Positions 14,909-51,895 are shown, counted from the stretch's first letter. The stretch is 53,859 nt of DNA from a virus (IMGVR_UViG_3300030106_005380:1-53859), one strand, 5' to 3'. Made by a program: numbers and translations. Notes: generated by a model not told the origin, from the letters alone.

Positions 14909-16121
14909 TTGATAACCATTTTTCACCTTCTTCGGGTGTAATCTCACCGAGGTAGTTTGATTTGATCATTGCGACGGAGTTATCACTTCGCAGCGCAGCT
15001 TCTCCCATTTCAACTCCTGTAGCAACCCATGAGCTAATGCAAGTATGACGGTGACCGTTGGCAACGTGTTCAACTCCTGATCGCCTTGAGGCATGTTCAA
15101 GTCTCTTGCTTATATACTTTGCTGAGTCAGTTCCAGCTATTGGCCCTTTGGAATTTTCATCCGCTCCAGCATAGCGAAGCCAAGCCTCAAGGGTGGGGGA
15201 GATGGCTACTTTACGGTGAGCTTTATTGTTTTTCGATACAGCAGCGGGGATTCGCAGATACTTTGTTTTCCATATAAAATTATTTTCCCAAGTCATTCTC
15301 GAAATTTCACAAACTCGGCAGGCAGCGAAGGCAGCGAGGGCGATCATAATAACCACCTCTTTATTTTTAGTCTTACACCTCATCCCGCTGGCTGTTTTGA
15401 GTAAGGTTGGCAATAAGTCAATATCCCATAATTCGACCTCTTCTACGCCCTTTTTTGAGCGTATTGCCTTTTTTTGCAGAATGTTGGCTGCATGATTGCC
15501 GTACGGGAGATATTTCATCATCTGGGCATAGTTGAAAAACTCTATAATCTTAGCCTGATAATTATAAACTGTTCTGGGCGCCCGCCCTGCAATAATAGAG
15601 GTATTCCACTCTAAAATCTCCTGCTCTGTTATTTCGTGAATATCAAACGGAAACATTTCCGTGAAAGGAAGAATCATATTTAGACCGCCTATTGTTGATT
15701 TGCACCGATTTAAATCCTTTTTGTTCTGCTTAAGCTCGTCCCAGATGGCCACAGTTGATTTGGGAGTGAACTCATCAGGCTGCTTTTGTCGATTAGTTAC
15801 AGCCTCATTAATGAGGGTGTCTATACGGAGTCGATCAGGTGAATCTTTTATTCTGGCAAAAGAATTTAGAAGATCGACGGCTGCTTTATACTCATTGAGT
15901 TCACGACCCGTTAAAGTAACGGCATCTCTTTGTTTTGTAATTTTGGTTTTTCTAGCTGCTGCTTTTGCCTCTTTTATGGTCTTATAAGTTCTTCTTATAC
16001 TCTTGCCATTTTCGCTGTGATATAAGGTAAAAGAGTTTCTGTTTTTGTAGATTGAAAAGGTCGTACTCCCTACTTTGAGTCTATCTACTATAGTTGAATC
16101 TTTGCTTTTTAATTTAGGCAT
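14883..16121 (-). CDS. int: Tyrosine integrase
   Basis: ACRVCEI (R), VSK (K), NGHRH (HxxR variant), SDNS..MIKSNY (catalytic Y); adjacent to a tRNA-derived att core. Confidence 0.92.
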   Translation of the reverse strand: MPKLKSKDSTIVDRLKVGSTTFSIYKNRNSFTLYHSENGKSIRRTYKTIKEAKAAARKTKITKQRDAVTLTGRELNEYKAAVDLLNSFARIKDSPDRLRIDTLINEAVTNRQKQPDEFTPKSTVAIWDELKQNKKDLNRCKSTIGGLNMILPFTEMFPFDIHEITEQEILEWNTSIIAGRAPRTVYNYQAKIIEFFNYAQMMKYLPYGNHAANILQKKAIRSKKGVEEVELWDIDLLPTLLKTASGMRCKTKNKEVVIMIALAAFAACRVCEISRMTWENNFIWKTKYLRIPAAVSKNNKAHRKVAISPTLEAWLRYAGADENSKGPIAGTDSAKYISKRLEHASRRSGVEHVANGHRHTCISSWVATGVEMGEAALRSDNSVAMIKSNYLGEITPEEGEKWLSTMPPCKLG

Positions 16122-16131
16122 CTCGATTGGC

Positions 16132-16843: not shown

Positions 16844-16850
16844 CTTGTGC

Positions 16851-26517: not shown

Positions 26518-27087
26518 ATGAATAAAGTTAATCCAAAGGATAGAAGAAAAATTAAAAGCTGGGTTCGTAAGTGCATGAACCTTTTAAAGAAAAAAGATTA
26601 CCCTCTAAACATTACTCGCAGTGATGTTGATTATGCTGTTAAGGTAACAAGGGTTGTAAACAAAAACTTTGAGGGTGCTACTTATGGTGGGCTTTACCAA
26701 ATCCAAATTAATCTAAATTATTGGCAGCACAGAAACGGAGCTGGCATTGAAGAGGAATATGCAGCCTTCGCAAATAATCCTGTTTACGGTGACAGGCAAG
26801 TAACAGACGTTGATGATCGTCTTTTAATAACAGTAGCCCATGAGGTCGCTCATCATGTCCAGTACCGTATCATGCAGGCTGATCACAGAATCAAAAGATC
26901 TGTATGGAAAAAACCTCACGGTGACGGCTTCCAAAGAATCTATCGGTGGCTCAGGCAGGACTTAGTTAATCCAATCATTGACGCTAAGATTGCTGAACAG
27001 GATAAGCTGAATCAGCTTAAGAAGATCACAAGGCGCAGGCAAATGGATCTGCCAATGCACGGTGAAGAATTCAAACTCGTAGCATAG
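26518..27087 (+). CDS. SprT-like zinc metallopeptidase
   Basis: TVAHEVAHH followed by KPHGDGF. Confidence 0.75.
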   Translation: MNKVNPKDRRKIKSWVRKCMNLLKKKDYPLNITRSDVDYAVKVTRVVNKNFEGATYGGLYQIQINLNYWQHRNGAGIEEEYAAFANNPVYGDRQVTDVDDRLLITVAHEVAHHVQYRIMQADHRIKRSVWKKPHGDGFQRIYRWLRQDLVNPIIDAKIAEQDKLNQLKKITRRRQMDLPMHGEEFKLVA

Positions 27088-35791: not shown

Positions 35792-36159
35792 AAGGGGAGC
35801 CTCTTAAGGCTTGTGATTTATATTGTACGGTTGATGGGATCAATCGACGTAAAGACTTTACGGCAACAATCAGGCTGGCAACAGAGCGTGAATGTGGCAG
35901 GGAATTGTATCATGATCTGGTTGATCTACAGGGAGCCACAGCACGGGTTATAATTGCCCCAGATAATGTGGATCCAGAAGCACCCATGGTAAGTGATGAA
36001 GGCGCAAATAAGCACCCTAGTGGCTCTCTATCAAAGCGACTGCGTAGCGTCCTTTACAGGCGTTGGGAAAACTCAGAGCATTCCAAACACTTTTCTTTCG
36101 ACAAGTATTATAAGATGCAGATGGAAAGCATCATCGAGAGTCAGAAAGAACTTATTTAG
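35770..36159 (+). CDS. Hypothetical phage protein
   Basis: 129 aa; SLSKRLRSVLYRRW...FDKYY..QMESII pattern. Confidence 0.65.
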   Translation: MDEYQMVEGEPLKACDLYCTVDGINRRKDFTATIRLATERECGRELYHDLVDLQGATARVIIAPDNVDPEAPMVSDEGANKHPSGSLSKRLRSVLYRRWENSEHSKHFSFDKYYKMQMESIIESQKELI

Positions 36160-39100
36160 CCAGCACCTCTTCCACATCTTCAGGAACTTCAAATCCCTCA
36201 GAAGTATAAGGACGCATTCTTTTGTAGGCTGTTGATTCTTTTTTATTAATCAGCATGTAATTCATTGGGTTATCGCCTGCATCATCAATTAGTGGAGCGA
36301 CTTCCCATGTCTTAGAAAGCTCAAGCGAGATAGGTCGATTATCAGCCATGTTAACAAGATTGCCGTACTGGTCACGGCTCATATTTTCGACAACTTTCCT
36401 CAAGAAGTCAGGCTTTGAGTCTTTAGGAATGCCGTCAATTTTGTTATCCTTTTGTAATCGGTCTGCCACTTTCCCCTCAGCTTTAATCATGCTTCTAATG
36501 GAATCATGGTAGGCAGGGCTTTGGGTGTAGATACTCCATTCATTAATGGCTTTGGCTTCCTTCTTATCAAGAGTGAGCGGATTTTCGACAGCCTTGTTTA
36601 TCAGTCTATCCATATCCTTAAAGCTCTCCATACCCGTTTGTGCTAAGGCTCTCTCTATAGTTGGCATCACCTCAATTCTGAGAGTCATATCTAGAAGTCT
36701 TTGAGCGGGCTTCACAATTCTTAAGGTCGCTGGATCAGGATATTTAATAACAATAGTCCCATCCTTATCATCATCCACAAGAGTTGACCCACTCAAGTCT
36801 ATGCCCATAGATTGGAGCTGCATAAGATCGCTTCTGACGTCTGCACGCTGGAGCATTGCATGATCAAAAGAAGTTGTTTTAACAAACTCGCCTTTGCTTA
36901 CTTCAGTTGTGTCATCAAGGTCCAGTGTTTTTAGGCTTCCAGCAGGCATCACAGTTTTTGAAAGGAGAGGGATGTTTCTCTTCCAAGCATTCAAGAACTG
37001 GTCTGTTGAGGTCATATTAAAATCAAAAGGCTCACTTGGGTATCTGCGTCTCTGTATAGGATCAGTGACTCTTTGTAAGAATCTCCAGTATGGGGCAGGG
37101 ATTAGTGTTCTGGAGGAAATGATGTCAAAAGTGAAGTCGGCATACTCTTCAGGCTGAGTTTTGTTTTCATCATACTTGTTCTCTGTGAAGAGTGCCATTA
37201 CTGGACCACGAGGAATAAACTCCATCGCCATGTCCATTGTCTCACCTAAAGTGTCTCTAATATTCAACTGCTCATCTTCATCTCTTTCCTTAGAGATAGC
37301 GTCAATCCACAAGTCTTGTGTTGCTAATATGTTTAAGTATGGCAAGGCTCTACCTCTAAGCCATAATTCCTGACCTGCTGCCTCCTCTGCTCCATAGGCT
37401 TCAAGATATCCTCTTACAGCATTAGTGATCTTGTCTCCAAATATGCTTGGCATTTCATCAAGGTTGAGTTTACCGCCTGACATTAACCAGAACCTCTTAA
37501 TGTATTCATCGTTAATATCCATGTTGGTTCCAACCTTGCCTGCTTCGAGTTTTGATTTTTCATCATCCTCTTCACCTAAGAGTCTCCATAGAAGAGTTCC
37601 CATTGCATAAAGGCTAAATCCAGAAGCTGCATTACGCCATTCGGCTCCACCCATTTTATCTTTCTTGCCCTTGCTGGTTAATAGCTCAGGAACTAACCCC
37701 ACTGGAGTGGTCTTTGTTAACAGCTTCCCGTAGTTGTAAATGAAATTACTAAATGGAATCAGTGCTGGTTTTGCTGCCTGCATGAGAGGGTGTTTGCTAT
37801 CCAGCCACATAGGAATATTGCTGTAGTCAAAAGCAAATAGCATTGCTGTACCGTAGGCTTCGTCGTGGATAGCGTCTGTATCCTTTACGCCCTTCATCCA
37901 GTCTCTTATCCATTTCTTTTTAGGAACATCAATTTTGCGACCTTCTGCCTTAGCTTTTCTAACCGCATCATTGTATGCCATTTGAGCGTGTGCTTTGTAG
38001 GAGGCATACATAAGGTTCTGCTTAACGGTAGGATCCATCTCGTGGAACTGAGCAATCTTGAGAACAGCAGAGCCTCCTTTAAGGTTCAGTAAATCTTTAA
38101 CTAATGAATCTTTTGGCTCCTTGCGCTCTATGCCTGAAACTAAAGTGTTATTATCAAATTTCTCACGAGGTATAATTTCGTTATATTTAGTTCTGCGATC
38201 TGTTGCAGCTTTAATGGCTTTGCCTATTTGTCCTTCTGCGAGCAATTTTAAAGCGCCTTTATCATAATCCTCATCGGTCAGCTTGCCTCTGATGTAATCA
38301 TCACCTGTTAGGAATGTATCTATTCCACTGTAATTACTTAGCCTTCTTGTAGCCAAACCTTTGAGAGTTTGCAGACCTGCTCTCAATTCATATTCTGCTC
38401 GTCTCCTGTCCTGTGGATTAGCTGCTCCTGTAGCCAAATAGATAGCAGCTTTATTAATACGATACATTCCTGCAAGACCAGCCTGCATATTAGGTGCTAA
38501 CCAGTTGAATAATATAGTTGCTGGTGCTGTTAGGAATCCAGAAATGACCTGTCCTAATAACCCTTGAATGACTCTGCCAAACTGATCAGCTTTACTGTGC
38601 CTTGCTGAAAGGTTATCAATGAGCGCTTCATACGTGGGTCTATCCATCATACGGTCCTGACCAATAAAGCGACTGGCTTTCTTATCTCCAAATAGAAACT
38701 CTAATATCTTTTGCTCCCTCTCATCATAGTTAGATTCATTTTCATTGAATAAAACTTTTTCCTGATAAGTGCTAAGTTCTGGATTTTGTACTGCCTCTTG
38801 CCAAAATTTATTGAGTGATGTTCCTCTAGCAGACTTGTCACTCATGACTAAAAGCATTCCCTTTAAAATATCATTGATTGTCTTTTTGCTTAATTCAACA
38901 TGACCTTCTGGTAGGCTGCCATCTTTAGGTATCGGCTTCGTTGCTGCCTCGATAAGTTTAAAAGCATTGTTCCTGCTTGTTCTCTCAAGGTGTGACTCCA
39001 AGGCTCTTATATCAAAGCCTTCAAATATGTTTAAAGTTTGTCCCTTCTCTCTAGCTGCTCCTGTTTTAACTCTTCTTGCTCCGCTGGTATTTAAAGTGAA

Positions 39101-42100
39101 AGCGCCAAGTCTTTTCTTAAACTGATCTTTTTCTAGCGCCTCTCTTGCTTTTACAGCAGCACCGCCAAGGATGGTAGCGATAGCCACATCAGGGGTATAA
39201 CCCTCGACAAAACCAGGGTCGCCAAGCTCTGTGTCTCCGAAGGCTTGCTTAAGAGACTCACGGTTGAAGATCGGTGTTTTAATTCCACTCGATGATGTGT
39301 ATGTCGCATTGCCGAAAAGTGGGTTAATAAATCTAACAAGAAAGATTCCAAGATCAGGATATTTAGCAATGAAGTCATTGAATAATCGCTGTTGGTCCTC
39401 TGCTGTAAAATGCTGCACAAGTAAGTAACCGTCCATCTCAGGTATGTAATCGCCCAGCTTCAAGGTGTGTGTATTGCCTTCACTCTCCTCAGTCATATAA
39501 CTGCCCTTAGACAAGTTCATAGCGTCAGCCTCATACTTAGGAATGAATCCCATGCGGGCATCAAATCCTCTAAAGGTGAATTGATTTTCAGTTATGTCTG
39601 CGTCTGGATTAACAGATTCAACATTGAGCCTTGCAGCCGTTGTATGTAACTCAGCAGAAAACTCTTTAAGCCTCTTTGCCTTTTTAAGTATTCTCCAGAA
39701 TGGAACCCCAACACGTTTCTTTAGTTCTCTTGAAAGACGTTCGCTGTACTCATTCACAGCAGCTTTAACTTTAGCCACGTTGTATTCAGCATCCCTAAGC
39801 GTTGATCCTGCTGTTCCTGAACCGCCATATAGTCCAGACATAAAATCCAAGAAGTCATATTTGCCTTGGAAGAAACGTCTTCTCCATCGTGACATTTCAG
39901 TTAAATTGTCTTTTCTTTTCTTAGCTCGTTCTTCTTTCTTAGCTTCTTTAACTTTTTGAGCTGTCTTAAGAAGCTCTGCTGTGGCTTTGTCTTGTTGAGC
40001 TTTCTTAGCCTTGTAGTCCTGTTCAAGATTGTCAGGATCCAAAGCATACCTTGTGTCTCCAGCAGCAGGCATTACACCTTCTGCAATGGTTTTCCAGTTC
40101 TTGCCAAAATCTTTTTCTAGCGCTTTAGAAGCTGCTTTGAAGTAAGAGGATTTAGGATTGCCTTTATGTCTGTTGTAAAGGTTTATGAAATTTTGTTGCC
40201 TCTTGGTTTTTTCGACAGCCTTTGGACGACGCATGACCGCCTCCGCATATTCTCTATCCTCAACCATAGCGAGTAGATCAGGATGTCCTTTATAATTTTC
40301 AAGACGACGCCTTTCATTAATTAGATCTTCTACAATCTGCTTGGGCTGTCCGTCTTTTATAAGGGTACTAACCTGTTCAGCCAACTTAGTTTTAAAGTCA
40401 CTGGTGATCGGATTATCGTCATTAACAGGCTGTAAAGTTTCTTCAACCTTATCAGCCAAGGCGTAGAGCCTATCTTTATTCTCATCAGTTGCAGGAATAT
40501 GGTCATAAGCGCTCAGGATTGCCTCAGATGGCGCTCTATCCAGTGCCTTGGTAAATTCACCCTTGCCTTTAACAGCAGCAAGTTTCTTGCCTTCTACGGG
40601 ATCCAAAGCGAAGAGGGGAGGGACATACGGAAGTTGACCCTTCATCTCAGGGGTGAACTTGATAGCATGTGTTGGATCAAATCCCTCTGCATACTTCAAT
40701 TCAGTATTATCTAAAGTTTGTAAGAATTGGTTTATTTGATCAAAGTAAGTTGATAGTTTTTGATACGGTACGGCATAATCAAATGAACCTCCTGTTTCAA
40801 ACATTAAGTCCAACTGTTCAACAAACTTTAATAAACTTTTTGGGTTGTTCTCAATTGCAGCACTAACAAATCCACCTAACGCTTGTTCGCTTTTATTGGC
40901 TTTTTCCATTCCTCTGTAAGGCAAACGAGCGCTCACTAGACCTGAAAATTTCTTACCCATCATCTCGGAAAAATTCTCTTTATAGAAAATAGGGGCGTAT
41001 TTCCTCTCTCCAAGTCCTGTGTCCTCATAAGGCACTCTAATACCGTATGTTGGATTTTCGTTAGCTTCACTTATGAGTTTATCAAATTCTTCTTGATACC
41101 CTTTTCTATCATCAAATGGTATATAGGAATAAAGAATAGACACTAAATTTTGCTTATCTTTAATCTTTTCATCAAAATCAAAATCTGTTGCAGTCTCTGC
41201 CAGAGAAAAAGGCTGGCTTCCCATTCTGTATTCTACAAATGAAGGAATGTTTGAAACGTGGTCATAAAGATCTAAGTCGTCTGCGAGGATTTTAAATTTC
41301 CTGTGCAGTGGGGAAAAGTTTTGAGCGTCCTGACTGCTACTATCTTCAGTAATTCTAAAACGGCTCCAAACTGTTTTCCAGTAATCTGCAATCTCTTGAG
41401 TGAGTTCAGAAATATCATCAAAATTTATTCTGGAAACACCTCCAAAGGGGTTGATCATAGAGTATAAATCCGTCTTGTAATCCAATAACTTCATTCTAAG
41501 ACGATTGTATTCTTTATGCTCGTCAAATTCGCCATCTCTCATGGCTAAGGCTGAAGCCTTAACTCTACCCGTAGCTGTTTCATTATAGAGTCTTTTAACT
41601 TCAGGGGCTGGAATTTGATAAGCTGTGTCAAAAAGCAGTGGCTTACTTTCAAGTTTGGCGTTGAATTTTTTGAGGTAACCTTTCTTGCCAGTCAAGAAAG
41701 ATGGAGCTGCAACATCGTAAAGCATACGGTGTAACTGCCCTCCAATACTTAGATCATCACCACTATATGTGCCTTCGTCTTCTTTAGAAGAGCGTATAGA
41801 GTCAGCTACTTTTTTGCCTACAATATTTTCTAATGACTTATTGTGTAATCGGCTATCTGGGTCAGATAGTTTACCCGTTAAAGGAACGCTTCCCACATCC
41901 AAGGGGTCGCCTTCTACAGAAACAGCTTTTAAATATACCTTCCCATCTTCTTGTTTTGTGTACTTTATAGCTTTGACGTTTTGCCTTAATCTGTCTTTAT
42001 ACAGTTTAACCTGCATATTTCCTGTAGCCCACGCCAGTCCATCAAAATCATTTTTAACGGCTAACCTAATAGCGTGTTTCAAAGCAGCTTCATACCATGT

Positions 42101-45100
42101 ATTAAGAATCGGAAGGTAAGGTATATTGGTGGCAGTAAAGCCACCCGTTGCTATATCCTCCATGCCCTCTGCCTTTTGGTAGATTGCGCCTATTTGTCGA
42201 TCAAAGGCATCTATTGCACCCCCAGTTAACGAAGCTAAACCTCCTGAAAAGTCAGGAAAAAGCTGTAAGGATGTTAAAAATTCCTCATAACTAGGAATAA
42301 TCTTAGGGTCTATTGTTTGGTAAATCTCTTCAAGTGTTGGTGGAGCAATTCCGCCCATCTCTTTATCCTGAGACGCATTAAATTCTAAGGAACTTTCAAG
42401 ACGACTATACAGTTTTTTTGTACTAAGCAGTGTTCTTATTACCGAAGTTACTGTCTGCGGGCGACTCAATCCAGTGACTTGTACATTGCTAGTTCTTGTC
42501 CTTAACATATTGACATAGTCATTGTCGCTGTTAATGACTTCGATGAACCTTTCAGCAGTAGGAATTAATTTAAGTTTTTCAATCTCTTCGGGCGATAAAG
42601 ATTGAAGGGCTTCAACGTGATTTTTCTCAGATTCTAATCCTGCCCTTAACCATCTTACTGCGTCGTAGGTGCTGGAATCCCTATCACCCCTGCTCTCCAC
42701 TCGACCCCGTTGTTCTCTTTCAGACATTTCATCTGCTCTTGCTTCTCTAATGCCTGAAGTTTTATCCCATTCACCTAACACATCTATCAAGGCTTTTACG
42801 GCTACTTCATGTCTCTTGAAATGTTCCCTGTATGCCTTTTTACCCATTGACCTAATACCCTCTTTTCCAACAGCGTCAGCAGTACGAATGAGGTTATCTA
42901 TTTCAATACCAAAATCTTTTATCTGTTGTCTAAAGCCTGCATCTTGTCGGTAATCAGTCGCATAATCACTTTGAATTTCTTCTATGAATAAATATTTATC
43001 ACCGTTCTCAGCGATTCTGTCGCTGGTTCTCATGTGGAAAAGAATATTTTTCTTTATGCCTCCGAAATGTTGAGGTGTATATATAACCTCTTGGTCAGCT
43101 TCATCACTGGCGGGATCATATAAATAAAAAACAAATTCCTTATAATTTTCTCCACCCTTTTGTCTCCAGTCACTATACATGACGGAGTTTTCGTTTAACT
43201 CCGCAACCCCAATTCTCATTTGGTTTAACGATGCAAAGTCATACAGGTCTGCTTTTTTTATTGTCCCTTTTTGATATTGGTTGTTGTGATCTAATATCCA
43301 CTGCTCTAAGCCCATCCAATCAACCTCAGCTTTTTTAACTCCCGCTGTTTTGCCAGGCTTGAAGAACGCTAATGCTTGATCGATAGATGCTTTCTCTGGA
43401 AATTTATTTTTAATTGCGCTAACAACTCCTGAATAAAAAGGTTCAGTGTCAGGATCTAAAGCAAATCTTATATCCTCTCTCTCTGGATCAAATCGTTCAG
43501 ACAATGGAATGACGTTACCTTCATTGTCATAGGTAACTGGATCTGCTTTTTTAATCTGCTCAGACTCAAATACAGAATAAGTTGTTGTTGGCTTGTCCCC
43601 TCTAACCACACCTGTCTGATAGTTATCTCTGACGTTTTCTATGATGACGCCATCCTTGCCTTCTTTGAGGGCTTTCTCAATGACGTTTCTTGTTCTGCCT
43701 GCCCCTTGAGCGCTACGCCATTTCGCTCCTTTCCCGTCAACCATATAAGGGTCATCAATCTTAATATAATAGTAATCAGTTCTTGGTTCTGCGTTCTGAA
43801 AGTCAAATGCTCTAGTATCATCAGCGTAAGTGGTTGCTGTATTGTAATCCTTAGCAAACCAATGGACTGCTGTGTCTGCCCACTCTTTGGGTCTAAATAC
43901 AGGATCGCTATCTAAAAATCTTCCATCAGGAGTACCATGCCATCCCTTGTATTTATAACCTGCATTCTCCGCAGCTCTATCAAGGAGTTTAGTTAGGTTC
44001 CAATAGTTATTATCAGGATCCTCAGCTAACCTCAAATACTCAGCGTCAGTTTCAGGATCAATGGCAAAGCGTTTAGTTGGAGACTTCTTAATTGCATCTT
44101 CTATTTCTTTAGGACCATAGGTTCTTGCGGGTTCCTGCGTGATTAGTTCCTCGCTTATCAAGCCTACATCCTCTGCTTTTTTGAGGGCTTCAGCATCAGC
44201 GCTAATGTGCATCTTGATGCTTCGTAGTCCTAAGTCTCTTAATACAGCGTATCGGTGTCTGCCGTTTATAAATTGAACTGAAAGTTCTCCTTTGGAGTTG
44301 GATTTAATTCGTGCTTCACTGGCTCCAATCGGCAAGTCAGTTTCAAGATATTCTTTAAAGGCTTCATACCTATTTGCAGGGAAAGCAAATCCACGTTTTT
44401 TGGTTTTTCTTTCAACGCTTTTTTCTGGAAAAGCTACGCCTCCTTCTCCACCTTTACCTATATACAATCCTGTATTCTTTTTAAATAACTTATCAAAATC
44501 TTTAACATTAACTTCAACAAATTGACTGTCTTCAGATGGAGTTCCCCTTGGCGATATTCTGTTAATAATCCCTCTCTTAGTTTCAGGATCTAAGGCAAAG
44601 AGTTTAGTTCCTCTATCAGTTTTCCGATACGTCATTTGCGAAAAGAGATAATCAAAATGTGGGGTGAAAATTTCTTTCTGTTCTTGTTGAGTTGGATAAG
44701 CTCCTCCAGTGGGATCAATATTAGCGAGGAAGTCGTTTGAAATTCCAGTTCCTGCCAACTTATTAACCACGTAACCCTCGAAGGCTCTCGCTGCTAACTC
44801 GATATTGGTGGAGTAATAGTCTTCTGTTCTTGCTTCATCAAATTTCTCTGCTCTTTTCTTAAAGTCGCTTGACCTAATTTTTCTCATCAGATCAACAAAA
44901 GCATCTATAACGTCATCACTGACATATTGAGCAATAGGTTTAGAGTGGCTTGTGATATACTCTGTGATATAACCACTAGCGCCTACGTCTGTTTTGTCTT
45001 TCTCATTTAGTTTTGAATAATAGTTATCCAATCCATGGAACCACTCGTGGGCTAGGGAACCTGCTCCTCTTTTTTTCGTAAGATTGATAGCAATCTTGAT

Positions 45101-48100
45101 AGGCTCATAGTGTGCAGCAGCAGCTCTCTTACCACCACTGCCTCTAGCTCCAAAAGCTAAGGCTAAGGTTCCATCTAATGAAAGAGCTTCGGTCGGTATA
45201 TTAAGGACTGAAGCTAAATCATTAAGAGCATCATAAGTTTCATTAAGGTTCTGTTGGCGACGTTTATTCTCAACGTAGTTTCCAAACTCAACGCCTCTGA
45301 ATCCAAACCGTGACATGAATTGATCAGGGTCAATGTTTTCATTGGGTCTTCTTAACCTTTCACCTTCTCTTGGTCTGTTTTCCTCACGCCTGAGCTTTAC
45401 ATTTTTCTTTTCGTTAAAGAGTTGTTCTATTTCATCAAAGTTATCTCTTAGGTAAGCGTGTGCATCAGAGACTGTTTCAAACCCATCCTTAAGTCTTATG
45501 ATTCGTCTGCTAACCTTTCTAGCAATGTAAATACTTTTATCCAGTCGGCTTTGATAGACTCCGTATGGCTTACGTCTCCTGTCCTCTTTGTCAGGATCAG
45601 GCTCTGTCTTCATCACCCTTTTAATCTGATCAGCTATTTCCATGATAGCTTCTTGAGGATCAGTCTTGAAGGATTTAGGGGCTGTTATTTTTGCTCTTTT
45701 GTTGTACTTGGCAACGTAAGCGTTAGTGGGCTTGTCTAGTGGCTCGCCCTGTTTGTCATAATTAACATTTCTGAAGTAGCCGATGCTCCACTTTTTAGCC
45801 TTAGTAAAATCAGGTAGTCCTAATGCTCGATACAGCATTGTTTTGCTCGCTATCTTTCCTAGCTGAGTGTTGACCCCATTAGCAGGAGCTATACCCACCT
45901 TTTTTCTTAAATCATAGTCTTCTTGTGTGGGCGTACGTCTTACAAAGGAATAAGATTTGATGTCCTTTAAAATTCCTGCCTCGTGAGAAAGTAATTCTTT
46001 CCACGCATTTGCAACTTCTGAATCAGGCTCTGTAAGTAGCTGGGTGGCTATCTCTCGCAAGGTTCTAAAAGTTTCAGCCCAGTTTCTGAGTTTAAATTTA
46101 CCTTTTGGTTTAGCAGGAATTGAATCTCTTATAGCAGCTATGGAAGCAAGCGTTTCAATACTCACACCTTCCTTAGCGAGTTGCTTGTAGTTTGGCATCG
46201 GGAAGTCCTTTGCCATCGTTATGTTGGCATCATCACCAACAAAACTTTCCATCTTCTCTAAATAGTCAGCATAAATATCTTTCTTAGCTCCACCTATCTT
46301 TTGACCAAAGTCCTCAATCTTTTCTTTAGTTTTTGGCAGTTGTGGCTCTCCAACTGGTAATGTTGGTGACTCTTTTTTCTTAGACTGAAAATTGAAAAAC
46401 TGTTGCTGTACTCTTTTAATGCCTCTTCGAGCAGGAGCATTACTGAAGTTAAAAGTTCCCTGATCAGGATCTAAGGCATAAACTTTTAAATCGCCAAGGA
46501 CTGGAAATGTTTTACCAGAACCGACAGTCCTATCATAGTTTTGTGACTGAGTGATGGCATCGGCAAGAACTGACCTGACTTCATCTAATCCTGAAATAGC
46601 ATCTACAGCCTCCCATTTTCTTCCCTTGCGTGGGGTTCTTCTAAATTTGTTTCTTAGTCCATCTATAAAGTCTACAAAAGATCTAACAGCTCGCTCACTT
46701 AACTTCGGTTCTTTAGGTAGGAATTTATCCCAGAACCTTTTATCCATGAACATATCGCCAGCAATGTTAGCTAAAGCCTCTTCTTCTATAACGCTAAAGT
46801 CGCCATCGTAAACGCCATGGTATTGACCAACGACAGTGCTTACTAACTCAGGGTAGAACCTTGCGTTCTTCTTTACGGCTGCTTTGTATTTGGCATAGAG
46901 GTCAGGATTAGTTTTCCTAAGTGTGTGCATAAACTCATGACCGAGTGTGGCAACAGGATCCCTGTATCCATCCAAGTTAATAAAGATAGTCCCTTCACTT
47001 ACAAGTCCTGACATGCGCTGACCTTGATCAGCTTTGTCTGCTGGCTCCATGAGGATAATGCGTCTGCCTGTCCTTTGCTCAAGGGCGAAAACAAGAGGTA
47101 AATTAATTCTGCCATCTACATCAGTTACATCTACAGGAACAAATTGCTGGGCTTCTGGCTGGCTTTTGTTTAAGCGATCAACCAGTTGTATTTGTTTCTT
47201 AGGGGATGTTTTAAGTTTTGTGGGAAGGCTGGCTAATCTCTCTTCTTTAGAACCCTCTTCCTCTAGCGTCTTTTGACCTGCTGCCGTGTTTTTGGCAGAG
47301 TTCATAGCCCGTTCAATCGCATCATACATTTTGCTCACAGAGTCGTATTCTCCGAAGAGTCCTTGACCTACAAGCGCCCTCATCATTTGATCAGGGTACA
47401 TGCCAGTTTCGCTGTAAATGCTATTGAAAACAGGGTTGGTTATATCTGGTTTGTCATCCCAAAGGCTTTGATTTTTTTTGTACTTTTCTTTGTTTTGCTT
47501 TTCAGCTTGAGATGATGACAAAAGACCGCCTTCATCAATGATGGCTGCGACAACTGGATCCTGTTCGTAAAATTCAACAAGCGGAGCAGTTCGCCTTGGT
47601 CTTCCAACTGGAGTCTCTACCGTCGGGGTCAGTACCCCTTCTTCATCGGGCGTAGTCGGCTCTTGTATGGATTCTTCTTCTTCTTTTTCTTCGGTTCGCT
47701 GGCGTATGTTTTCTTCCGTGCCTGTGAAGGTAGCTGGGTCATTGATGTCTTCCTGTACATTTCCTTGTGGTGTTTGTGTTGTTTGTTGGTCGTCTAATAT
47801 ATCAACAGCTCCAGATCGGTTTTGACCTGTCGGTGTATCCTGTCTAAATTCCCCAGTCCCTGGTCTTTCTGTACCAAATTCTCCTGTCCTAGTTACCTGT
47901 CTAATGCCTGCCTCATCTTCTACAGCTTCACGCTCCTCTTGGGCAGTTTCTTGAGCAACTTCCTGCTCGTCTCTTTCCTGTTCTAAAGTTTCTGTTTGTT
48001 CCGTCGTTAAATCTTCATCAACCTTTTCTGTTTGCTCTTCAGTATCTTTCTCTGCACTTTCTTTTTCAGGTTCAACCTTTTTACCTTCTTTTAAATCAAT

Positions 48101-51100
48101 AGTTGGCAGGTCAGCTTCAGCCACTGCATCAATGTCAGTTTGTATGACCTCTACTTCATAATCTATTATTCCTAGAGTCTCTGCATTCGTTGCACCTATC
48201 TCCATTCCCTTCTCCACGCTACTCAACTCCATGGATGGCAATGAAATGTAATTTTCAGGATCAGCGTTAGGAACTATTCTTATTTCGTATTTAGGTAAAG
48301 ATGGTTGATCAAGTTCTGCATCGGCAACCCCTGAGGTAATTTCACGACCATCTTTTACATTACTATTTATGATGCTGTCGTTGGTTGTCTCGCCATCCAT
48401 TGCAGGCTCGACGTTAGTGTCTACCTTGCCTCTGACCTGTACATCTGCTTCTTGTCTAACTCTTTCAGCTAAATTGTGTGGAAGGATCCTAGCTGCTGAA
48501 GCATTTACCTTCATGCCTCCGTCCTCATCTTGTGTGGCGACTCCTAAATCAACGAGTATTTGTGCATTCTCGCTGCGTGTTGCCTTGCCATCATTTAGAA
48601 TACTTTCAGTCTCTTTAGCTATAAATATGTATCCCTGTATAGCAGACACGGCAGCATCCTTTTGTAAAAGAGTGGCTTCACCGTCTACTTCTAGTGCAGA
48701 AAAAATGTTATTAATATTTTCCTCAGAAAGAATTGCAGCGTCCTCTGCAATCTGATTGCCAACCGCAATGGCATTATAAAGTGCCTCGCCACCAGTAACG
48801 GCTGAATCAAGTATAGCTTCTTGCGTTTCGGGTGAGATGTTTTGATTGGCAAGAATATTGGAAATAGTTCTTCGGGCAATGCCTATATTAATTAGATCAG
48901 CAGCTTTGTTAGCATGGGCAGCAGTAACCGCATTTCTGTTGTCGATTATGTCTACAATATCAGCGTCACCTCGTGCATTTTGTGAGAGTTCTTCTTTTGC
49001 TGTCTCTCCACCTGTAGCTGCTGCATCAACCTTATCTAAATCTTTTTCTATTTGTTTATAGGCTTCAGCAATTTGTTTCCTTTGTTTAAAGTCTGCACCA
49101 AAAGACCTGACCCCCATACTTCCACCCAGCAGGGCGCCTACATAGAAAGAGACAAGTCCACCCTCAGTATATTTCCTGTCAGGATCATACTTGGATCGAG
49201 CATACATGTTCTCCCAGAATGTTTGTGCTACCTCTGTACCGCCCTCTGCGCCTGACTTGATGCCAGCTCCACCAAGCGCAGCCATGAAAGCTCCTTTTTT
49301 AGTGGAGATTAAACTTTGATACGCCTTTTTAGGCATCCACTTTTTAAAGATCGAATGACCTTTTAGTAGCATTATATCAACTATAGAGTCTAAGCCTGCT
49401 ATACCAGCAGCGTGAAGATACATGTCCAATGTCCCTTCTGGACTCATGCCCGCCTCAACCATTTCTCTCACCATGCCTTCAGCCTGTGTTGAGAAGTTTA
49501 CGTTAAAGGCTGCTGCTGCACCTCCTAATTTGTGACCTACCGCATAAGTACCACCTTTGTAGGCTTTAGCGAATACGTAAAGCTGGGCAGCGCCATCAAC
49601 CAATCCATTCCAAGTCTGCATGGCTTTGGAGGTTCTTGCTTTAAAATCAGAAGCCACACTAGTTGGCAATTCCTCATCAAACTTTTTCTCCATGCGTTCA
49701 GCAAACTCTTGCGTCGCTTTGGCGTGATAGTGGTCACCAAATATTCTGTGAGGGATGTACATCATATTCATGACGCTTTTACCTACAGTTTTTAGAAGTC
49801 GGTTCTTAGTATCCTTAAAAAATCCAACATCTTTTCTAGTGACAACAAGGTTTTCTGAAACAAAATCAAGGTGATCTTCTATCAGACCGCCCTCTTTATC
49901 ATCCTGCCATGAGTTATAAGTCTTTTCTTTTATGATTGAGCTGTCACCTAACTCACCATCAATCTTGTATTCAAAGGTAGGCTTGCCTTTCTTCTCATCC
50001 TTAAGGCGTATTGAAAAGCCAAGTCCTGTTCTTTCATCAACGTCTATGTGTTTCCATTCGTACCTTGCTTGCCTTTGTTGTTCTGCAAAATTCTCTTTTA
50101 ATCTTCTTTGTGCGTTCTGTAATGCGCTTAAATTGATATTCTGATCAAACCACTCAACGGTTGGTTTTATATCAAGGAAAGGACCAAACTCTTCTGCGTT
50201 TTGTTGCAGTCTTTTCGCAATGAGTTTCTTCTCGTGGTTTTTAAGTTTAGTGGGATTGTCACGAAGGTTTTCAAACGCCATGCCTGTCCTCATGTCTTCA
50301 TAAGAACCTTTTGTTTGAGGTCGTCTCTTTCCTTCTGCAAATCCATAAGGTGAATCTGCATCTTTACCCATTAAAAGATAAGAGTGTAACTGTGAGGACC
50401 ACTGTACATTATCCAAATCAGCCAATAGCTGTTTATATATGTATCTTAATGAATATTGTTTGGCTTCCTCCTGTAAAACTCTTTTGGCGACACTAATGTT
50501 GGAGCCGTCGTATCCAGCTACTCCAACAGGCAGCTTGGGCTTGCCCATATCCGTGCTGCATAAGTCATCAATGTTTTGATAAAGTTTAGTTAAGCTGACG
50601 TCTTCTGGTGAAAGAACTACAGGAACTTTAGCCTGTGCTTCTGGGCTACTTGTTGAGTTTCGGTTCTCCTTGTGAGAAGCGTCTTCAGTAAGCGCATTTT
50701 GTGCCTCCTCGTCCTTTGGATTCTTTTCGGCATGGTGAGAGCTTATTCTGACCTTAGCGTCTTGAGCTGTAATTCCTGAGTTTAAGGATTCACCAATGGC
50801 TTGTACATTTTTTGTCTCTTCGCTTTGATCATCCTTTGGGGGCGTAACCTGTAACTTACCTTCTGTCGTGTTGACGGGCTTTGACTCCTCTGGTCGCTTT
50901 TCTTCATCCTTAGTTCCCTCATTCAAAGGGGTCATATAAAAGATGCCTGCGGGACCAATGTTTTTATAGAGACTGCCTTTATCCTTGTAACCTTCAAGGC
51001 TTTCCAAGGATTCCATCAGATTACCAGTGTAAGGTCTGGTTTTTAGATAGTTAGTGTATCGACCCTGTAAGATGTTCTGATATTCACTTTCAGTCTTATC

Positions 51101-51895
51101 AGAATCTAGTCTGGCTTGCTCCTCTATTAACGCTGCTAATTTTGTTTCATCTTCTACACGAGCAGGGATTTTCTTGCGTGTATTATTGTAGCCTGTAACA
51201 GTTTTCTTCTTATGCTCAATGAGCCTTTCCTGTTTAGAAATTTCAGCTCGTTGTTTATCGATGTTGTAAGTCTTATCTTCTAGCTCTTTCTGCTGGTTAA
51301 GTTCAACAGCGTTTGATTGCTCAATAGCTTTTTTTTGCTGTTGTTCAAAATACTTTTCTTTATTGGTTCCTATAACATGCTTTCTGCCATCTTTGAGAGT
51401 AATATAAGCCTCTCCAGTTTTTGGATCAGTTTTGTAGTTACCAGTCTTGAGGGGATCTTTATATTTGTATTTTAGTTTTCGATCACGAAATACTTCTGAG
51501 GCAACGCCAAACTCATCAATATCAAAACCTTGAGATTCCCACTCTTTAGTTTGGTTCATGTACGGCTTGTATTTACCGTTTTCCAAATACCAGTGATCAA
51601 CATCACTAGGATCTAAATTATTGTCTCTTATCCATTTTTTCTGAGCTTGTACATTTCGTTTTTTATTATCAGCCTCAATCTTCTTTTGCTCTGCTGCTCT
51701 ACGGGCTTCGTCAGCTCTTTGTTTAGCCAGTTGCTTCTCTTGCCAAATCAAGTTGGCTTGGTTAGCCATATCCCACTGCTCACGCCTTTTACGGCTTTTA
51801 GTTGGCGTTGAAAAGGGGTTGTTAGTCCTAGTCCCATCATACCCAATACCAGTGTCTTTTCTTTCTCCAAATGGGTTCTTTTTAGGTCTAGCCAT
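36152..51895 (-). CDS. Giant polyvalent protein (5247 aa), probably virion-packaged and ejected
   Basis: Contains HEFMH...EEALAN zincin, IEDFGQKIGGAKKD and FGFRGVEFGN...LAHEWFH (LPD5/LPD1-like), NGRHR ParB-like, WHGT...WF...DGVII...YSVFESEQIK (ART-PolyVal-like) and FHMR...EEIQSD segments, plus Gly/Ala-rich membrane-like helices. Confidence 0.88.
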   Translation of the reverse strand: MARPKKNPFGERKDTGIGYDGTRTNNPFSTPTKSRKRREQWDMANQANLIWQEKQLAKQRADEARRAAEQKKIEADNKKRNVQAQKKWIRDNNLDPSDVDHWYLENGKYKPYMNQTKEWESQGFDIDEFGVASEVFRDRKLKYKYKDPLKTGNYKTDPKTGEAYITLKDGRKHVIGTNKEKYFEQQQKKAIEQSNAVELNQQKELEDKTYNIDKQRAEISKQERLIEHKKKTVTGYNNTRKKIPARVEDETKLAALIEEQARLDSDKTESEYQNILQGRYTNYLKTRPYTGNLMESLESLEGYKDKGSLYKNIGPAGIFYMTPLNEGTKDEEKRPEESKPVNTTEGKLQVTPPKDDQSEETKNVQAIGESLNSGITAQDAKVRISSHHAEKNPKDEEAQNALTEDASHKENRNSTSSPEAQAKVPVVLSPEDVSLTKLYQNIDDLCSTDMGKPKLPVGVAGYDGSNISVAKRVLQEEAKQYSLRYIYKQLLADLDNVQWSSQLHSYLLMGKDADSPYGFAEGKRRPQTKGSYEDMRTGMAFENLRDNPTKLKNHEKKLIAKRLQQNAEEFGPFLDIKPTVEWFDQNINLSALQNAQRRLKENFAEQQRQARYEWKHIDVDERTGLGFSIRLKDEKKGKPTFEYKIDGELGDSSIIKEKTYNSWQDDKEGGLIEDHLDFVSENLVVTRKDVGFFKDTKNRLLKTVGKSVMNMMYIPHRIFGDHYHAKATQEFAERMEKKFDEELPTSVASDFKARTSKAMQTWNGLVDGAAQLYVFAKAYKGGTYAVGHKLGGAAAAFNVNFSTQAEGMVREMVEAGMSPEGTLDMYLHAAGIAGLDSIVDIMLLKGHSIFKKWMPKKAYQSLISTKKGAFMAALGGAGIKSGAEGGTEVAQTFWENMYARSKYDPDRKYTEGGLVSFYVGALLGGSMGVRSFGADFKQRKQIAEAYKQIEKDLDKVDAAATGGETAKEELSQNARGDADIVDIIDNRNAVTAAHANKAADLINIGIARRTISNILANQNISPETQEAILDSAVTGGEALYNAIAVGNQIAEDAAILSEENINNIFSALEVDGEATLLQKDAAVSAIQGYIFIAKETESILNDGKATRSENAQILVDLGVATQDEDGGMKVNASAARILPHNLAERVRQEADVQVRGKVDTNVEPAMDGETTNDSIINSNVKDGREITSGVADAELDQPSLPKYEIRIVPNADPENYISLPSMELSSVEKGMEIGATNAETLGIIDYEVEVIQTDIDAVAEADLPTIDLKEGKKVEPEKESAEKDTEEQTEKVDEDLTTEQTETLEQERDEQEVAQETAQEEREAVEDEAGIRQVTRTGEFGTERPGTGEFRQDTPTGQNRSGAVDILDDQQTTQTPQGNVQEDINDPATFTGTEENIRQRTEEKEEEESIQEPTTPDEEGVLTPTVETPVGRPRRTAPLVEFYEQDPVVAAIIDEGGLLSSSQAEKQNKEKYKKNQSLWDDKPDITNPVFNSIYSETGMYPDQMMRALVGQGLFGEYDSVSKMYDAIERAMNSAKNTAAGQKTLEEEGSKEERLASLPTKLKTSPKKQIQLVDRLNKSQPEAQQFVPVDVTDVDGRINLPLVFALEQRTGRRIILMEPADKADQGQRMSGLVSEGTIFINLDGYRDPVATLGHEFMHTLRKTNPDLYAKYKAAVKKNARFYPELVSTVVGQYHGVYDGDFSVIEEEALANIAGDMFMDKRFWDKFLPKEPKLSERAVRSFVDFIDGLRNKFRRTPRKGRKWEAVDAISGLDEVRSVLADAITQSQNYDRTVGSGKTFPVLGDLKVYALDPDQGTFNFSNAPARRGIKRVQQQFFNFQSKKKESPTLPVGEPQLPKTKEKIEDFGQKIGGAKKDIYADYLEKMESFVGDDANITMAKDFPMPNYKQLAKEGVSIETLASIAAIRDSIPAKPKGKFKLRNWAETFRTLREIATQLLTEPDSEVANAWKELLSHEAGILKDIKSYSFVRRTPTQEDYDLRKKVGIAPANGVNTQLGKIASKTMLYRALGLPDFTKAKKWSIGYFRNVNYDKQGEPLDKPTNAYVAKYNKRAKITAPKSFKTDPQEAIMEIADQIKRVMKTEPDPDKEDRRRKPYGVYQSRLDKSIYIARKVSRRIIRLKDGFETVSDAHAYLRDNFDEIEQLFNEKKNVKLRREENRPREGERLRRPNENIDPDQFMSRFGFRGVEFGNYVENKRRQQNLNETYDALNDLASVLNIPTEALSLDGTLALAFGARGSGGKRAAAAHYEPIKIAINLTKKRGAGSLAHEWFHGLDNYYSKLNEKDKTDVGASGYITEYITSHSKPIAQYVSDDVIDAFVDLMRKIRSSDFKKRAEKFDEARTEDYYSTNIELAARAFEGYVVNKLAGTGISNDFLANIDPTGGAYPTQQEQKEIFTPHFDYLFSQMTYRKTDRGTKLFALDPETKRGIINRISPRGTPSEDSQFVEVNVKDFDKLFKKNTGLYIGKGGEGGVAFPEKSVERKTKKRGFAFPANRYEAFKEYLETDLPIGASEARIKSNSKGELSVQFINGRHRYAVLRDLGLRSIKMHISADAEALKKAEDVGLISEELITQEPARTYGPKEIEDAIKKSPTKRFAIDPETDAEYLRLAEDPDNNYWNLTKLLDRAAENAGYKYKGWHGTPDGRFLDSDPVFRPKEWADTAVHWFAKDYNTATTYADDTRAFDFQNAEPRTDYYYIKIDDPYMVDGKGAKWRSAQGAGRTRNVIEKALKEGKDGVIIENVRDNYQTGVVRGDKPTTTYSVFESEQIKKADPVTYDNEGNVIPLSERFDPEREDIRFALDPDTEPFYSGVVSAIKNKFPEKASIDQALAFFKPGKTAGVKKAEVDWMGLEQWILDHNNQYQKGTIKKADLYDFASLNQMRIGVAELNENSVMYSDWRQKGGENYKEFVFYLYDPASDEADQEVIYTPQHFGGIKKNILFHMRTSDRIAENGDKYLFIEEIQSDYATDYRQDAGFRQQIKDFGIEIDNLIRTADAVGKEGIRSMGKKAYREHFKRHEVAVKALIDVLGEWDKTSGIREARADEMSEREQRGRVESRGDRDSSTYDAVRWLRAGLESEKNHVEALQSLSPEEIEKLKLIPTAERFIEVINSDNDYVNMLRTRTSNVQVTGLSRPQTVTSVIRTLLSTKKLYSRLESSLEFNASQDKEMGGIAPPTLEEIYQTIDPKIIPSYEEFLTSLQLFPDFSGGLASLTGGAIDAFDRQIGAIYQKAEGMEDIATGGFTATNIPYLPILNTWYEAALKHAIRLAVKNDFDGLAWATGNMQVKLYKDRLRQNVKAIKYTKQEDGKVYLKAVSVEGDPLDVGSVPLTGKLSDPDSRLHNKSLENIVGKKVADSIRSSKEDEGTYSGDDLSIGGQLHRMLYDVAAPSFLTGKKGYLKKFNAKLESKPLLFDTAYQIPAPEVKRLYNETATGRVKASALAMRDGEFDEHKEYNRLRMKLLDYKTDLYSMINPFGGVSRINFDDISELTQEIADYWKTVWSRFRITEDSSSQDAQNFSPLHRKFKILADDLDLYDHVSNIPSFVEYRMGSQPFSLAETATDFDFDEKIKDKQNLVSILYSYIPFDDRKGYQEEFDKLISEANENPTYGIRVPYEDTGLGERKYAPIFYKENFSEMMGKKFSGLVSARLPYRGMEKANKSEQALGGFVSAAIENNPKSLLKFVEQLDLMFETGGSFDYAVPYQKLSTYFDQINQFLQTLDNTELKYAEGFDPTHAIKFTPEMKGQLPYVPPLFALDPVEGKKLAAVKGKGEFTKALDRAPSEAILSAYDHIPATDENKDRLYALADKVEETLQPVNDDNPITSDFKTKLAEQVSTLIKDGQPKQIVEDLINERRRLENYKGHPDLLAMVEDREYAEAVMRRPKAVEKTKRQQNFINLYNRHKGNPKSSYFKAASKALEKDFGKNWKTIAEGVMPAAGDTRYALDPDNLEQDYKAKKAQQDKATAELLKTAQKVKEAKKEERAKKRKDNLTEMSRWRRRFFQGKYDFLDFMSGLYGGSGTAGSTLRDAEYNVAKVKAAVNEYSERLSRELKKRVGVPFWRILKKAKRLKEFSAELHTTAARLNVESVNPDADITENQFTFRGFDARMGFIPKYEADAMNLSKGSYMTEESEGNTHTLKLGDYIPEMDGYLLVQHFTAEDQQRLFNDFIAKYPDLGIFLVRFINPLFGNATYTSSSGIKTPIFNRESLKQAFGDTELGDPGFVEGYTPDVAIATILGGAAVKAREALEKDQFKKRLGAFTLNTSGARRVKTGAAREKGQTLNIFEGFDIRALESHLERTSRNNAFKLIEAATKPIPKDGSLPEGHVELSKKTINDILKGMLLVMSDKSARGTSLNKFWQEAVQNPELSTYQEKVLFNENESNYDEREQKILEFLFGDKKASRFIGQDRMMDRPTYEALIDNLSARHSKADQFGRVIQGLLGQVISGFLTAPATILFNWLAPNMQAGLAGMYRINKAAIYLATGAANPQDRRRAEYELRAGLQTLKGLATRRLSNYSGIDTFLTGDDYIRGKLTDEDYDKGALKLLAEGQIGKAIKAATDRRTKYNEIIPREKFDNNTLVSGIERKEPKDSLVKDLLNLKGGSAVLKIAQFHEMDPTVKQNLMYASYKAHAQMAYNDAVRKAKAEGRKIDVPKKKWIRDWMKGVKDTDAIHDEAYGTAMLFAFDYSNIPMWLDSKHPLMQAAKPALIPFSNFIYNYGKLLTKTTPVGLVPELLTSKGKKDKMGGAEWRNAASGFSLYAMGTLLWRLLGEEDDEKSKLEAGKVGTNMDINDEYIKRFWLMSGGKLNLDEMPSIFGDKITNAVRGYLEAYGAEEAAGQELWLRGRALPYLNILATQDLWIDAISKERDEDEQLNIRDTLGETMDMAMEFIPRGPVMALFTENKYDENKTQPEEYADFTFDIISSRTLIPAPYWRFLQRVTDPIQRRRYPSEPFDFNMTSTDQFLNAWKRNIPLLSKTVMPAGSLKTLDLDDTTEVSKGEFVKTTSFDHAMLQRADVRSDLMQLQSMGIDLSGSTLVDDDKDGTIVIKYPDPATLRIVKPAQRLLDMTLRIEVMPTIERALAQTGMESFKDMDRLINKAVENPLTLDKKEAKAINEWSIYTQSPAYHDSIRSMIKAEGKVADRLQKDNKIDGIPKDSKPDFLRKVVENMSRDQYGNLVNMADNRPISLELSKTWEVAPLIDDAGDNPMNYMLINKKESTAYKRMRPYTSEGFEVPEDVEEVLAK

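Follow-up and report, generated by a model that had tools for sequence, protein, structure and literature searches.

What does a short peptide do at every module boundary of a giant phage protein? The question is raised by a virus genome of the IMG/VR collection, the 53,859-nucleotide (nt) stretch IMGVR_UViG_3300030106_005380:1-53859 (called the window here, by which we mean the whole of this stretch). A single open reading frame (ORF) at 36152..51895 (-) runs for 5,247 amino acids (aa) without a stop and takes up 29% of the phage genome. Along its product the peptide [FY]A[LI]DP is found six times, and relatives of the protein keep the peptide while the modules on either side are exchanged. 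This conservation points to a functional motif, and one attractive possibility is that the motif marks the sites where the chain is cut into separate proteins.

One peptide at every module boundary

Three domains of the giant protein score above the Pfam gathering score: LPD5 (PF18799; E-value (E) 1.2e-20), LPD1 (E 4.3e-15) and ART-PolyVal (PF18760; E 1.7e-9). The remainder has no family match in Pfam, PHROG or NCBIfam. Since LPD5, LPD1 and ART-PolyVal are found together in one giant chain, the product counts as a phage polyvalent protein as Iyer et al. 2017 (PMC5512222) use the term. As expected of this class, the ORF is encoded among virion and late genes, with portal, major head, terminase and tail genes in the same record.

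A first-pass annotation of the window had listed six [FY]A[LI]DP peptides and proposed that they divide the protein into effector modules. All six are present in the translated ORF exactly where it had placed them:

46466..46480 (-), junction 1: YALDP at aa 1806, 12 aa past the end of zincin-1
44585..44599 (-), junction 2: FALDP at aa 2433, 8 aa past the end of the zincin-2/LPD1 match (aa 2424) and 7 aa past the end of the 249-position model
44054..44068 (-), junction 3: FAIDP at aa 2610, with motif columns invariant in the alignment of ART modules
43451..43465 (-), junction 4: FALDP at aa 2811, with R-F-A-L-D invariant at 23-29% identity
40598..40612 (-), junction 5: FALDP at aa 3762, motif match
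40034..40048 (-), junction 6: YALDP at aa 3950, motif match

The comparison of motif count with expectation, which had been suggested as a check, came out strongly in favor of the motif. From the protein's own composition 0.0148 copies are expected against the six observed (Poisson P(>=6) = 1.5e-14), and 2,000 shuffles gave a mean of 0.015 motifs and a maximum of 1. Loosening the pattern to [FYWLIVM]A[LIVM]DP and scanning the entire window in all six frames returned the same six copies and none other. The expected count and the six-frame scan together rule out chance or low complexity as the source of the motif.

The six junctions delimit seven modules in the order D-E-G-A-H-B-C, where E is the block of LPD5, zincin-2 and LPD1; zincin-1 and zincin-2 are the two predicted peptidase domains with an HExxH signature. 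The modules and their domains are as follows:

46481..51895 (-), module D, aa 1-1805: conserved N-terminal piece without an internal junction, with zincin-1 at its C-terminal end
46514..47269 (-), zincin-1 domain, aa 1543-1794: profile match, with HEFMH at aa 1653-1657 (46925-46939)
45314..45736 (-), LPD5 domain, aa 2054-2194, in module E: Pfam PF18799
44624..45367 (-), zincin-2 and LPD1, aa 2177-2424: Pfam LPD1 and family profile, with HEWFH at aa 2283-2287 (45035-45049)
44069..44587 (-), module G, aa 2437-2609: contains NGRHRY; only in P0001, P0003 and P0004
43466..44056 (-), module A, aa 2614-2810: ART-PolyVal ADP-ribosyltransferase (ART) module with a GNVIPLSERF tail
40613..43453 (-), module H, aa 2815-3761 (951-aa module): widely conserved, contains EEIQSD
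40049..40600 (-), module B, aa 3766-3949: conserved 188-aa module
36155..40036 (-), module C, aa 3954-5247: conserved C-terminal piece, the most conserved part of the giant protein

This succession agrees with the modules listed in the first-pass annotation (D, LPD5-zincin-2-LPD1, G, ART, H, B, C), with one motif per boundary and with the homology of relatives breaking at the motifs. The domain labels it had attached fared unevenly. LPD5, LPD1 and ART are supported by Pfam, but "ParB-like" for segment 3 and "zincin" for the HEFMH domain are not. The leads for these two labels are weak: an Atlas match to ParB_N (0.90) in the one case, and a conserved HExxH with a downstream Glu in the other. 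Module G, for which Pfam, PHROG and NCBIfam gave no match, is thus possibly ParB-like by its Atlas lead. Module H has no match in the same three collections either. An H-like module was found in 57 of the 224 proteins examined, with two widely conserved blocks at residues ~1-180 and ~440-620 (EEIQSD is near the latter), and its N-terminal FYS[PG] always lies 2-10 residues past a junction. It was also considered as the common factor of junction-bearing giants and rejected, being absent from L007, P0046 and P0087.

By Pfam, LPD5 and LPD1 are both inside segment 2, the Pfam LPD1 match ends 14 aa upstream of the motif at aa 2433, and the ART-PolyVal match covers residues 39-172 of the 201-aa segment 4. 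The sequences flanking the junctions are richer in polar and flexible residues (0.72-0.76) than random positions (0.59-0.62), with P<=0.005 in each of seven proteins. The structure prediction by segment that had been proposed as a further check gave nothing decisive. In the AlphaFold2 (AF2) model, junction 1 lies after the folded domain in a stretch with a predicted local distance difference test (pLDDT) value below 50 (model residues 356-381, that is aa 1805-1830), and the model of aa 2400-2860, which covers junctions 2-4, was built on a 6-row alignment and is unusable, with a mean pLDDT of 36.7.

Two further peptides deserve a mention. A motif-like V-F-A-L-E sequence (aa 1602-1606, 47077-47091) is located inside zincin-1, about 50 residues before HEFMH and not at a module boundary; it is kept in close relatives, as IFALE in P0004. 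ART-like modules end in a conserved tail, D-x-x-G-N-[VI]-I-P-L-S-x-R-F (43466-43510, aa ~2796-2810), located 8-9 residues before the junction. The tail recurs in many unrelated polyvalent proteins and resembles the …G-N-V-x-[LM]-F-S… found after LPD1; it is possibly an earlier version of this junction element.

The junction peptide in relatives

Restricting a homologue search to giants between 2,885 and 9,183 aa gave 73 proteins, all of them giant homologues with LPD domains. The strict motif has 4-6 copies in each of the seven closest (P0002-P0008) and none in the other 66, where different peptides occupy these places; the idea that all polyvalent proteins share the motif is thereby ruled out. 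It was not found in gp35 of the Shiga toxin (Stx) phage 86 or in gp57 of Bacillus phage Dartukuta. Four related IMG/VR contigs carry 4, 6, 6 and 10 copies, the last in L007, and none was found outside the giant ORF in any frame of the eight loci fetched from these contigs. The clade is a small one; besides the window and the four IMG/VR contigs it includes just a few clusters of metagenome proteins.

Within this clade, all 54 motif sites in eight proteins are at module boundaries, with one per junction. Seven clade proteins were cut at every [FY]A[LIV]D and the pieces clustered at >=60% mutual coverage. The pieces are whole modules, which differ in order, presence and copy number between relatives:

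P0005: D-E-A-A-I-B-C
P0006: D-E-F-A-I-B-C
P0007: D-E-F-k-l-m-n-B-J-C
P0008: D-A-o-p-F-q-B-J-C
L007: r-s-A-t-u-v-w-B-A-x-C

A homologous module D is present in P0004-P0008, and module A takes varying positions and copy numbers. The comparison of P0005 with P0006 is especially instructive: modules E, A, B and C are 92-96% identical, I is 77% and D 87% identical, and between two of the motifs the proteins have unrelated cassettes (28% identical). Homology between relatives breaks exactly at the motifs. The opposite arrangement, a module that has diverged next to a motif that has not, is seen in the alignment of ART modules, which are only 23-29% identical to that of the window; here the R-F-A-L-D after the module is invariant, and so are the A and D of the preceding motif. 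L007, the most distant relative, has several ART-like modules in tandem in its giant ORF (nt 2-16945 of the locus), each flanked by R-F-A-L-D-V, and appears to string paralogous ADP-ribosyltransferases into an array within a single chain.

A profile of 37 non-redundant junctions has information only at positions -1 to +5, as [RLMK]-[FY]-A-L-D-[PV]-[DE], where positions 0-3 are set by the search pattern and -1, +4 and +5 are free. The proline of the window's copies is not a constant feature. In L007, nine junctions read R-F-A-L-D-V and one reads F-A-L-D-D; at five of its nine junctions, P0007 replaces the P after the Asp by S, R, A, T or I; and one of the six junctions of P0004 has D-E where the homologous junction of the window has D-P. 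From these sequences the core of the motif is [RKLM]-[FY]-A-L-D, with a lineage-specific proline.

Is it the peptide or the underlying DNA that is conserved? The 28 junction copies of the window, L004, L006 and L007 spell 18 different 12-nt sequences, and the codon family used for Leu varies by genome (TTR in 5/5 copies in the window, CTY in 6/6 in L006 and mostly CTG in L007). Because of this variety of spellings and of Leu codon families, the conserved entity between lineages is the peptide and not the DNA.

Outside the clade, the same places in other giants carry short peptides of a similar kind. Following zincin-1, the first 30 aa include [FLMY]S[LIVR]x or [FY]A[LIV]x in 43 of 139 tails, a match seen in 6.2% of control windows; following zincin-2/LPD1, the strict pattern occurs in 26 of 69 tails against 6.3% of controls, nearly all at an offset of 7-8. 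Alignment of the 69 LPD1 ends gives a tail consensus of …T-[DE]-x-G-[VI]-x-[LM]-[FY]-x-x…, placed at a fixed offset, and the aromatic residue is present in 56. The giant of a Bacillus phage, for instance, has FSFA after LPD1. The 4-mer that begins with this aromatic residue recurs at least three times within the same protein in 8 of 56 giants, as compared to 2 of 345 control 4-mers. The boundaries at which it recurs have homologous counterparts in the window, namely those that follow the GNVIPLSxRF tail of an ART-like module, those that follow the …ITPEM… tail, and those immediately preceding the FYSP… with which H-like modules start. The recurrent post-LPD1 and junction peptides are:

P0123: FQRE, six copies
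P0046: FSRS, three copies
P0036: FQIS, three copies
P0045 and P0048: FSK, five to six copies
P0018: [FY]SSP, four copies
P0087: FSLD, six copies
P0064: [FY]SLR, four copies

Because other giants reuse their own post-LPD1 peptide at homologous boundaries, the FALDP of the window is, on this sequence evidence, the clearest case of a lineage-specific junction peptide that is found in a sizeable minority of the superfamily.

Proposed cleavage in the same chain and its alternatives

The explanation that fits best is that the junction peptide is a protease recognition site. There is one site per junction and none inside the modules, it is conserved as a peptide, it is the same across unrelated modules and differs between lineages, it is located in polar linkers, and it follows each of the peptidase domains. 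We lean modestly towards the motifs being cleaved by a protease of some kind. That they are polyprotein-style cleavage sites for a zincin in the same chain is a narrower claim, to which we would give slightly less than an even chance. The first-pass annotation had called ALDP a cleavage or ejection signal for the HEFMH or HEWFH peptidase of the same protein. The cleavage part of this proposal gains from having one motif per junction, kept while modules swap and following both zincins, but the core is [FY]-A-L-D and not "ALDP"; nothing was found in support of a role as an ejection signal.

The scheme would work as follows. The gene would encode a polyprotein carried in the virion, in which the conserved N-terminal module D, ending in a zinc peptidase, and the conserved C-terminal pair B and C frame a variable set of anti-host effector modules. 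At every boundary one [RKLM]-[FY]-A-L-D-[P/V]-[D/E] in a polar linker would serve as the recognition site. The enzyme would be zincin-1 (HEFMH), possibly together with zincin-2 (HEWFH with LPD1). Cutting at all sites would divide the ~580-kDa chain into seven products of about 1805, 627, 177, 201, 951, 188 and 1298 aa, and the scissile bond would probably adjoin the invariant aromatic residue. What the sequences show is the motif, its statistics, its conservation and its place at module boundaries and behind both peptidase domains; that the chain is cut, by which enzyme, at which bond and when, is what we infer here.

Both HExxH domains have conserved residues of the catalytic type. The zincin-1 family counts 526 cluster representatives at E<=1e-3, most of them within other giants. 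In an alignment of 20 sequences the E and the second H of HExxH are invariant, and the first H and a Glu located 49 residues past the second H are >=90% conserved; the AF2 model of the core (pLDDT 74-87) has three strands followed by the HExxH helix. The first motif is found 4-33 aa past zincin-1 in all eight clade members, and the next junction is 7 residues past the end of the zincin-2/LPD1 model. P0008 has a single HExxH, that of zincin-1, and eight junctions, and the fetched part of L007 (its N-terminus is outside the locus) is alike. All 16 junction-bearing giants that were checked have at least one HExxH. Searches of the PDB by sequence with zincin-1 and zincin-2 gave no match. A complex prediction of the zincin-1 core with a 40-aa junction peptide and Zn scored 0.01 and weighs neither way.

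A number of observations count against cleavage by an enzyme of the same chain. That zincin-1 and zincin-2 are proteases at all is a prediction. Zincin-1 has no Pfam model and its fold searches left it unclassified: the best Foldseek match in the PDB is Ste24/ZMPSTE24 at E 0.07, and a wide VIA-align search gave Z <= 6.6, on helical hairpins only. Zincin-2 resembles NCBIfam CLCA_X (E 1.8e-44) but scores under the curated cut-off (152 vs 260 bits). Zincin-1 is missing from the junction-bearing P0018, P0036, P0045, P0046 and P0048, and zincin-2 is missing from P0008, P0064 and P0087 and was not seen in L007, so that no one peptidase family accompanies all junction-bearing giants. Conversely, many giants have zincin-2 but no recurrent motif. 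The association of the motif with zincin-1 is confounded by descent, because both co-occur within one clade, and the AF2 model leaves the tail that bears the first motif undocked from the zincin-1 active site. Cleavage is a prediction for this protein and for every homologue; the preprint on phi24B (bioRxiv 10.64898/2026.04.10.717836), in its available text, mentions no fragments of the homologous gp47. Lastly, the codons of the motif are more uniform within a genome than the usage of the gene as a whole. All 32 copies (L005 included) encode the motif Ala by GCC or GCT, as compared to a gene-wide share of ~34-47% for GCA plus GCG. This uniformity points to some homogenization at the DNA level, as repeated recombination would give, with a translational effect as another possible cause; since the junction copies are not independent, we treat it as a qualification and not as a result.

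It is against this background that recombination joints have to be considered, where a short stretch serves, or is kept by, cassette exchange between co-infecting relatives and the peptide is a tolerated linker in an uncut chain, much like the conserved motifs that precede the variable toxin domains of polymorphic toxins. The breakpoints of replacement, duplication and loss do coincide with the motif, its codons are homogeneous within a genome and different between genomes, and the junction peptide is particular to each lineage, which is what concerted evolution would produce. We nevertheless consider it unlikely. The stretch is only 12-15 nt, and the 28 copies with their 18 spellings share little exact DNA identity; the motif is kept across lineages that have changed the Leu codon family and beside modules that are just 23-29% identical; and there is information also at -1 and at the acidic +5. 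Recombination also leaves unexplained why the motif should keep its fixed place behind both peptidase domains in hundreds of proteins. A different way to keep the chain whole is to suppose that the copies are docking peptides, either short linear motifs or edge beta-strands, for one shared binding partner such as the capsid interior, the portal, a chaperone or the neighboring module. The hydrophobic F-A-L island within a polar linker would suit this, and so would the conserved T-D-x-G turn that precedes the post-LPD1 copy, which makes that copy resemble the second strand of a hairpin. However, a covalent chain needs one targeting signal and not one per junction, a structural strand need not be identical across unrelated modules and yet differ by lineage, and in the only usable model the motif region is of low confidence with no packed strand. 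Docking therefore strikes us as rather improbable.

The other alternatives keep the cut and change its agent. The motifs could be cleaved in trans, whether by a protease of the host or by a second phage protein; examples of the latter would be an unrecognized head-maturation protease or the SprT-like ORF at 26518..27087 (+). The want of a peptidase family common to all junction-bearing giants speaks for it, the SprT-like match is there, if weak (E 9e-4, below the cut-off), and there is a precedent in the prohead protease that cuts internal head and ejection proteins of T4-like and phiKZ-like phages at short motifs, as described in PMC10052503. But no prohead protease was recognized by PHROGs or Pfam among the window ORFs of at least 150 aa, where a divergent one is possible, and the motif is missing from the capsid, portal, scaffold-like and all other ORFs in six frames, when prohead proteases normally cut several head proteins. 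The lineage specificity of the motif tracks the giant protein itself, and the 16 giants checked all bring an HExxH of their own. We regard cleavage in trans as quite improbable. The Asp-Pro bond, found in all six copies of the window, brings to mind spontaneous or self-catalyzed cleavage of the acid-labile or Asp-Pro self-processing type. The relatives contradict this for the clade as a whole: with D-V at nine and D-D at one of the ten L007 junctions, a residue other than P at five of nine in P0007 and one D-E in P0004, the proline is not conserved, and explanations that need an Asp-Pro bond are therefore removed. We consider this the least probable of the alternatives by far.

Returning to cleavage in the same chain, it can be extended to a more general, and more tentative, proposal. 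Phage polyvalent proteins as a class could be true polyproteins with a lineage-specific cleavage code, in which an invariant aromatic residue follows the tail of each module, the next 3-4 residues (ALD, SRS, QRE, QIS, SK, SSP, SLD, SLR) set the specificity for the zincin that the lineage carries in the same chain, site and enzyme co-evolve, and a shared site allows modules to be exchanged freely. The window phage would then be the cleanest example, with six sites and seven products.

The phage and comparable systems

The IMG/VR record coincides with the whole window, and CheckV puts its completeness at 100%; integrase, replication and lysis genes are found in it along with the virion genes mentioned above. 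It represents an uncultured phage lineage. A tblastn search with the portal found nothing at E<=1e-5 among 50,697 deposited phage records, and profiles of modules B and C found no relatives among 185,579 species genomes, only the same four IMG/VR contigs. Other features of the genome are:

2-4549 (-), tail protein of at least 1,516 aa that extends past the window start; it has a CBM_4_9 carbohydrate-binding domain and is probably the receptor-binding protein
14883..16121, integrase gene
26518-27087 (+), 189-aa ORF with the SprT-like (zincin) match, under the Pfam cut-off; a possible separate metallopeptidase
30746-32836 (-), portal ORF that matches Pfam SU10_portal

Mass spectrometry has found the homologue gp47 of phi24B in virions, and a role in ejection has been proposed for it (bioRxiv 10.64898/2026.04.10.717836). 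By analogy, the giant protein of the window would be carried in the virion and delivered with the DNA. Glycine- and alanine-rich hydrophobic stretches can be seen by eye at aa ~780-930 and ~4440-4480, in the conserved N- and C-terminal pieces, and might fit membrane-inserting parts of an ejection protein. The Stx-phage giant (phi24B gp47; Stx2-converting phage 86 gp35) has a homologous LPD5-HEWFH-LPD1 block, with 34% identity over 92-94% of segment 2, and the same aromatic tail after LPD1 (…GVAFYSRK). It differs in having no [FY]ALD motif, a tail 4-mer that does not recur, about half the size and fewer modules.

Polyproteins of eukaryotic RNA viruses, such as those processed by picornavirus 3C or potyvirus NIa, have one conserved, lineage-specific short site per junction and the protease in the same chain; the sites have been mapped experimentally, and the proteases are chymotrypsin-like. 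The window shares with them the conserved short site at each junction between modules. In polymorphic toxins a short motif (VENN of CdiA, DPxGL of Rhs) marks the point of cassette exchange before a single C-terminal toxin with its immunity gene. The likeness lies in the short conserved motif at an exchange point. However, the toxins have one such junction and the window clade has six to ten internal ones; with six internal junctions and its C-terminal module the most conserved, the giant of the window does not belong to this type. Prohead-protease sites of T4-like and phiKZ-like phages, with SPN3US gp245 as an example (PMC10052503), are short motifs that direct the cutting of head proteins that are packaged and ejected. 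They occur in many head proteins and mostly serve the removal of N-terminal propeptides, whereas the motif of the window is in one protein only and between modules. Its absence outside the giant ORF in six frames, in the genome and the related loci, and the absence of this protease family among window ORFs of at least 150 aa, led us to reject such maturation sites as its class.

In MARTX toxins a protease within the same chain cuts at Leu in unstructured segments between the effectors, and, like the giant of the window, they are very large chains with conserved ends around exchangeable effector domains (PMC2900308). There is no sequence relationship between the two. The MARTX enzyme is a cysteine protease that is activated by inositol hexakisphosphate (InsP6) and needs only a Leu at P1, while the window has a predicted zincin, a motif of 5-6 residues, a phage carrier and a bacterial target. 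The closest comparison is with the polyvalent proteins described by Iyer et al. 2017 (PMC5512222), for which zincin-like metallopeptidases within the chain were proposed to process the protein; the first-pass annotation had relied on this work, and correctly so as far as its text goes. They have the same giant, multi-domain make-up, the same context of virion genes and the same LPD5, LPD1, ART-PolyVal and HExxH peptidase domains. The difference is that the text of that paper, its supplementary alignments being outside the comparison, names no cleavage site, linker or junction motif, and the window has a defined peptide at every junction. Our literature searches turned up no described junction or cleavage motif for polyvalent proteins and no such motif-defined polyprotein scheme for tailed phages, and "FALDP" returned unrelated papers only. 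The protein class and the idea of self-processing are thus already known; what is new is the defined, lineage-specific junction peptide.

Self-processing of polyvalent proteins has been a prediction since 2017, with no site, enzyme assignment or test to go with it. One peptide per junction now gives exact predicted cut sites and product sizes, and it also provides a rule for parsing the Pfam-dark parts of these giants into modules. The lineage-specific reuse of the post-LPD1 peptide suggests a general principle, which can be checked in hundreds of sequences. If the cleavage reading is true, phages would deliver arrays of separate anti-defense enzymes from one gene, much like MARTX toxins and RNA-virus polyproteins, and the shared junction would explain how these effector arrays are reshuffled.

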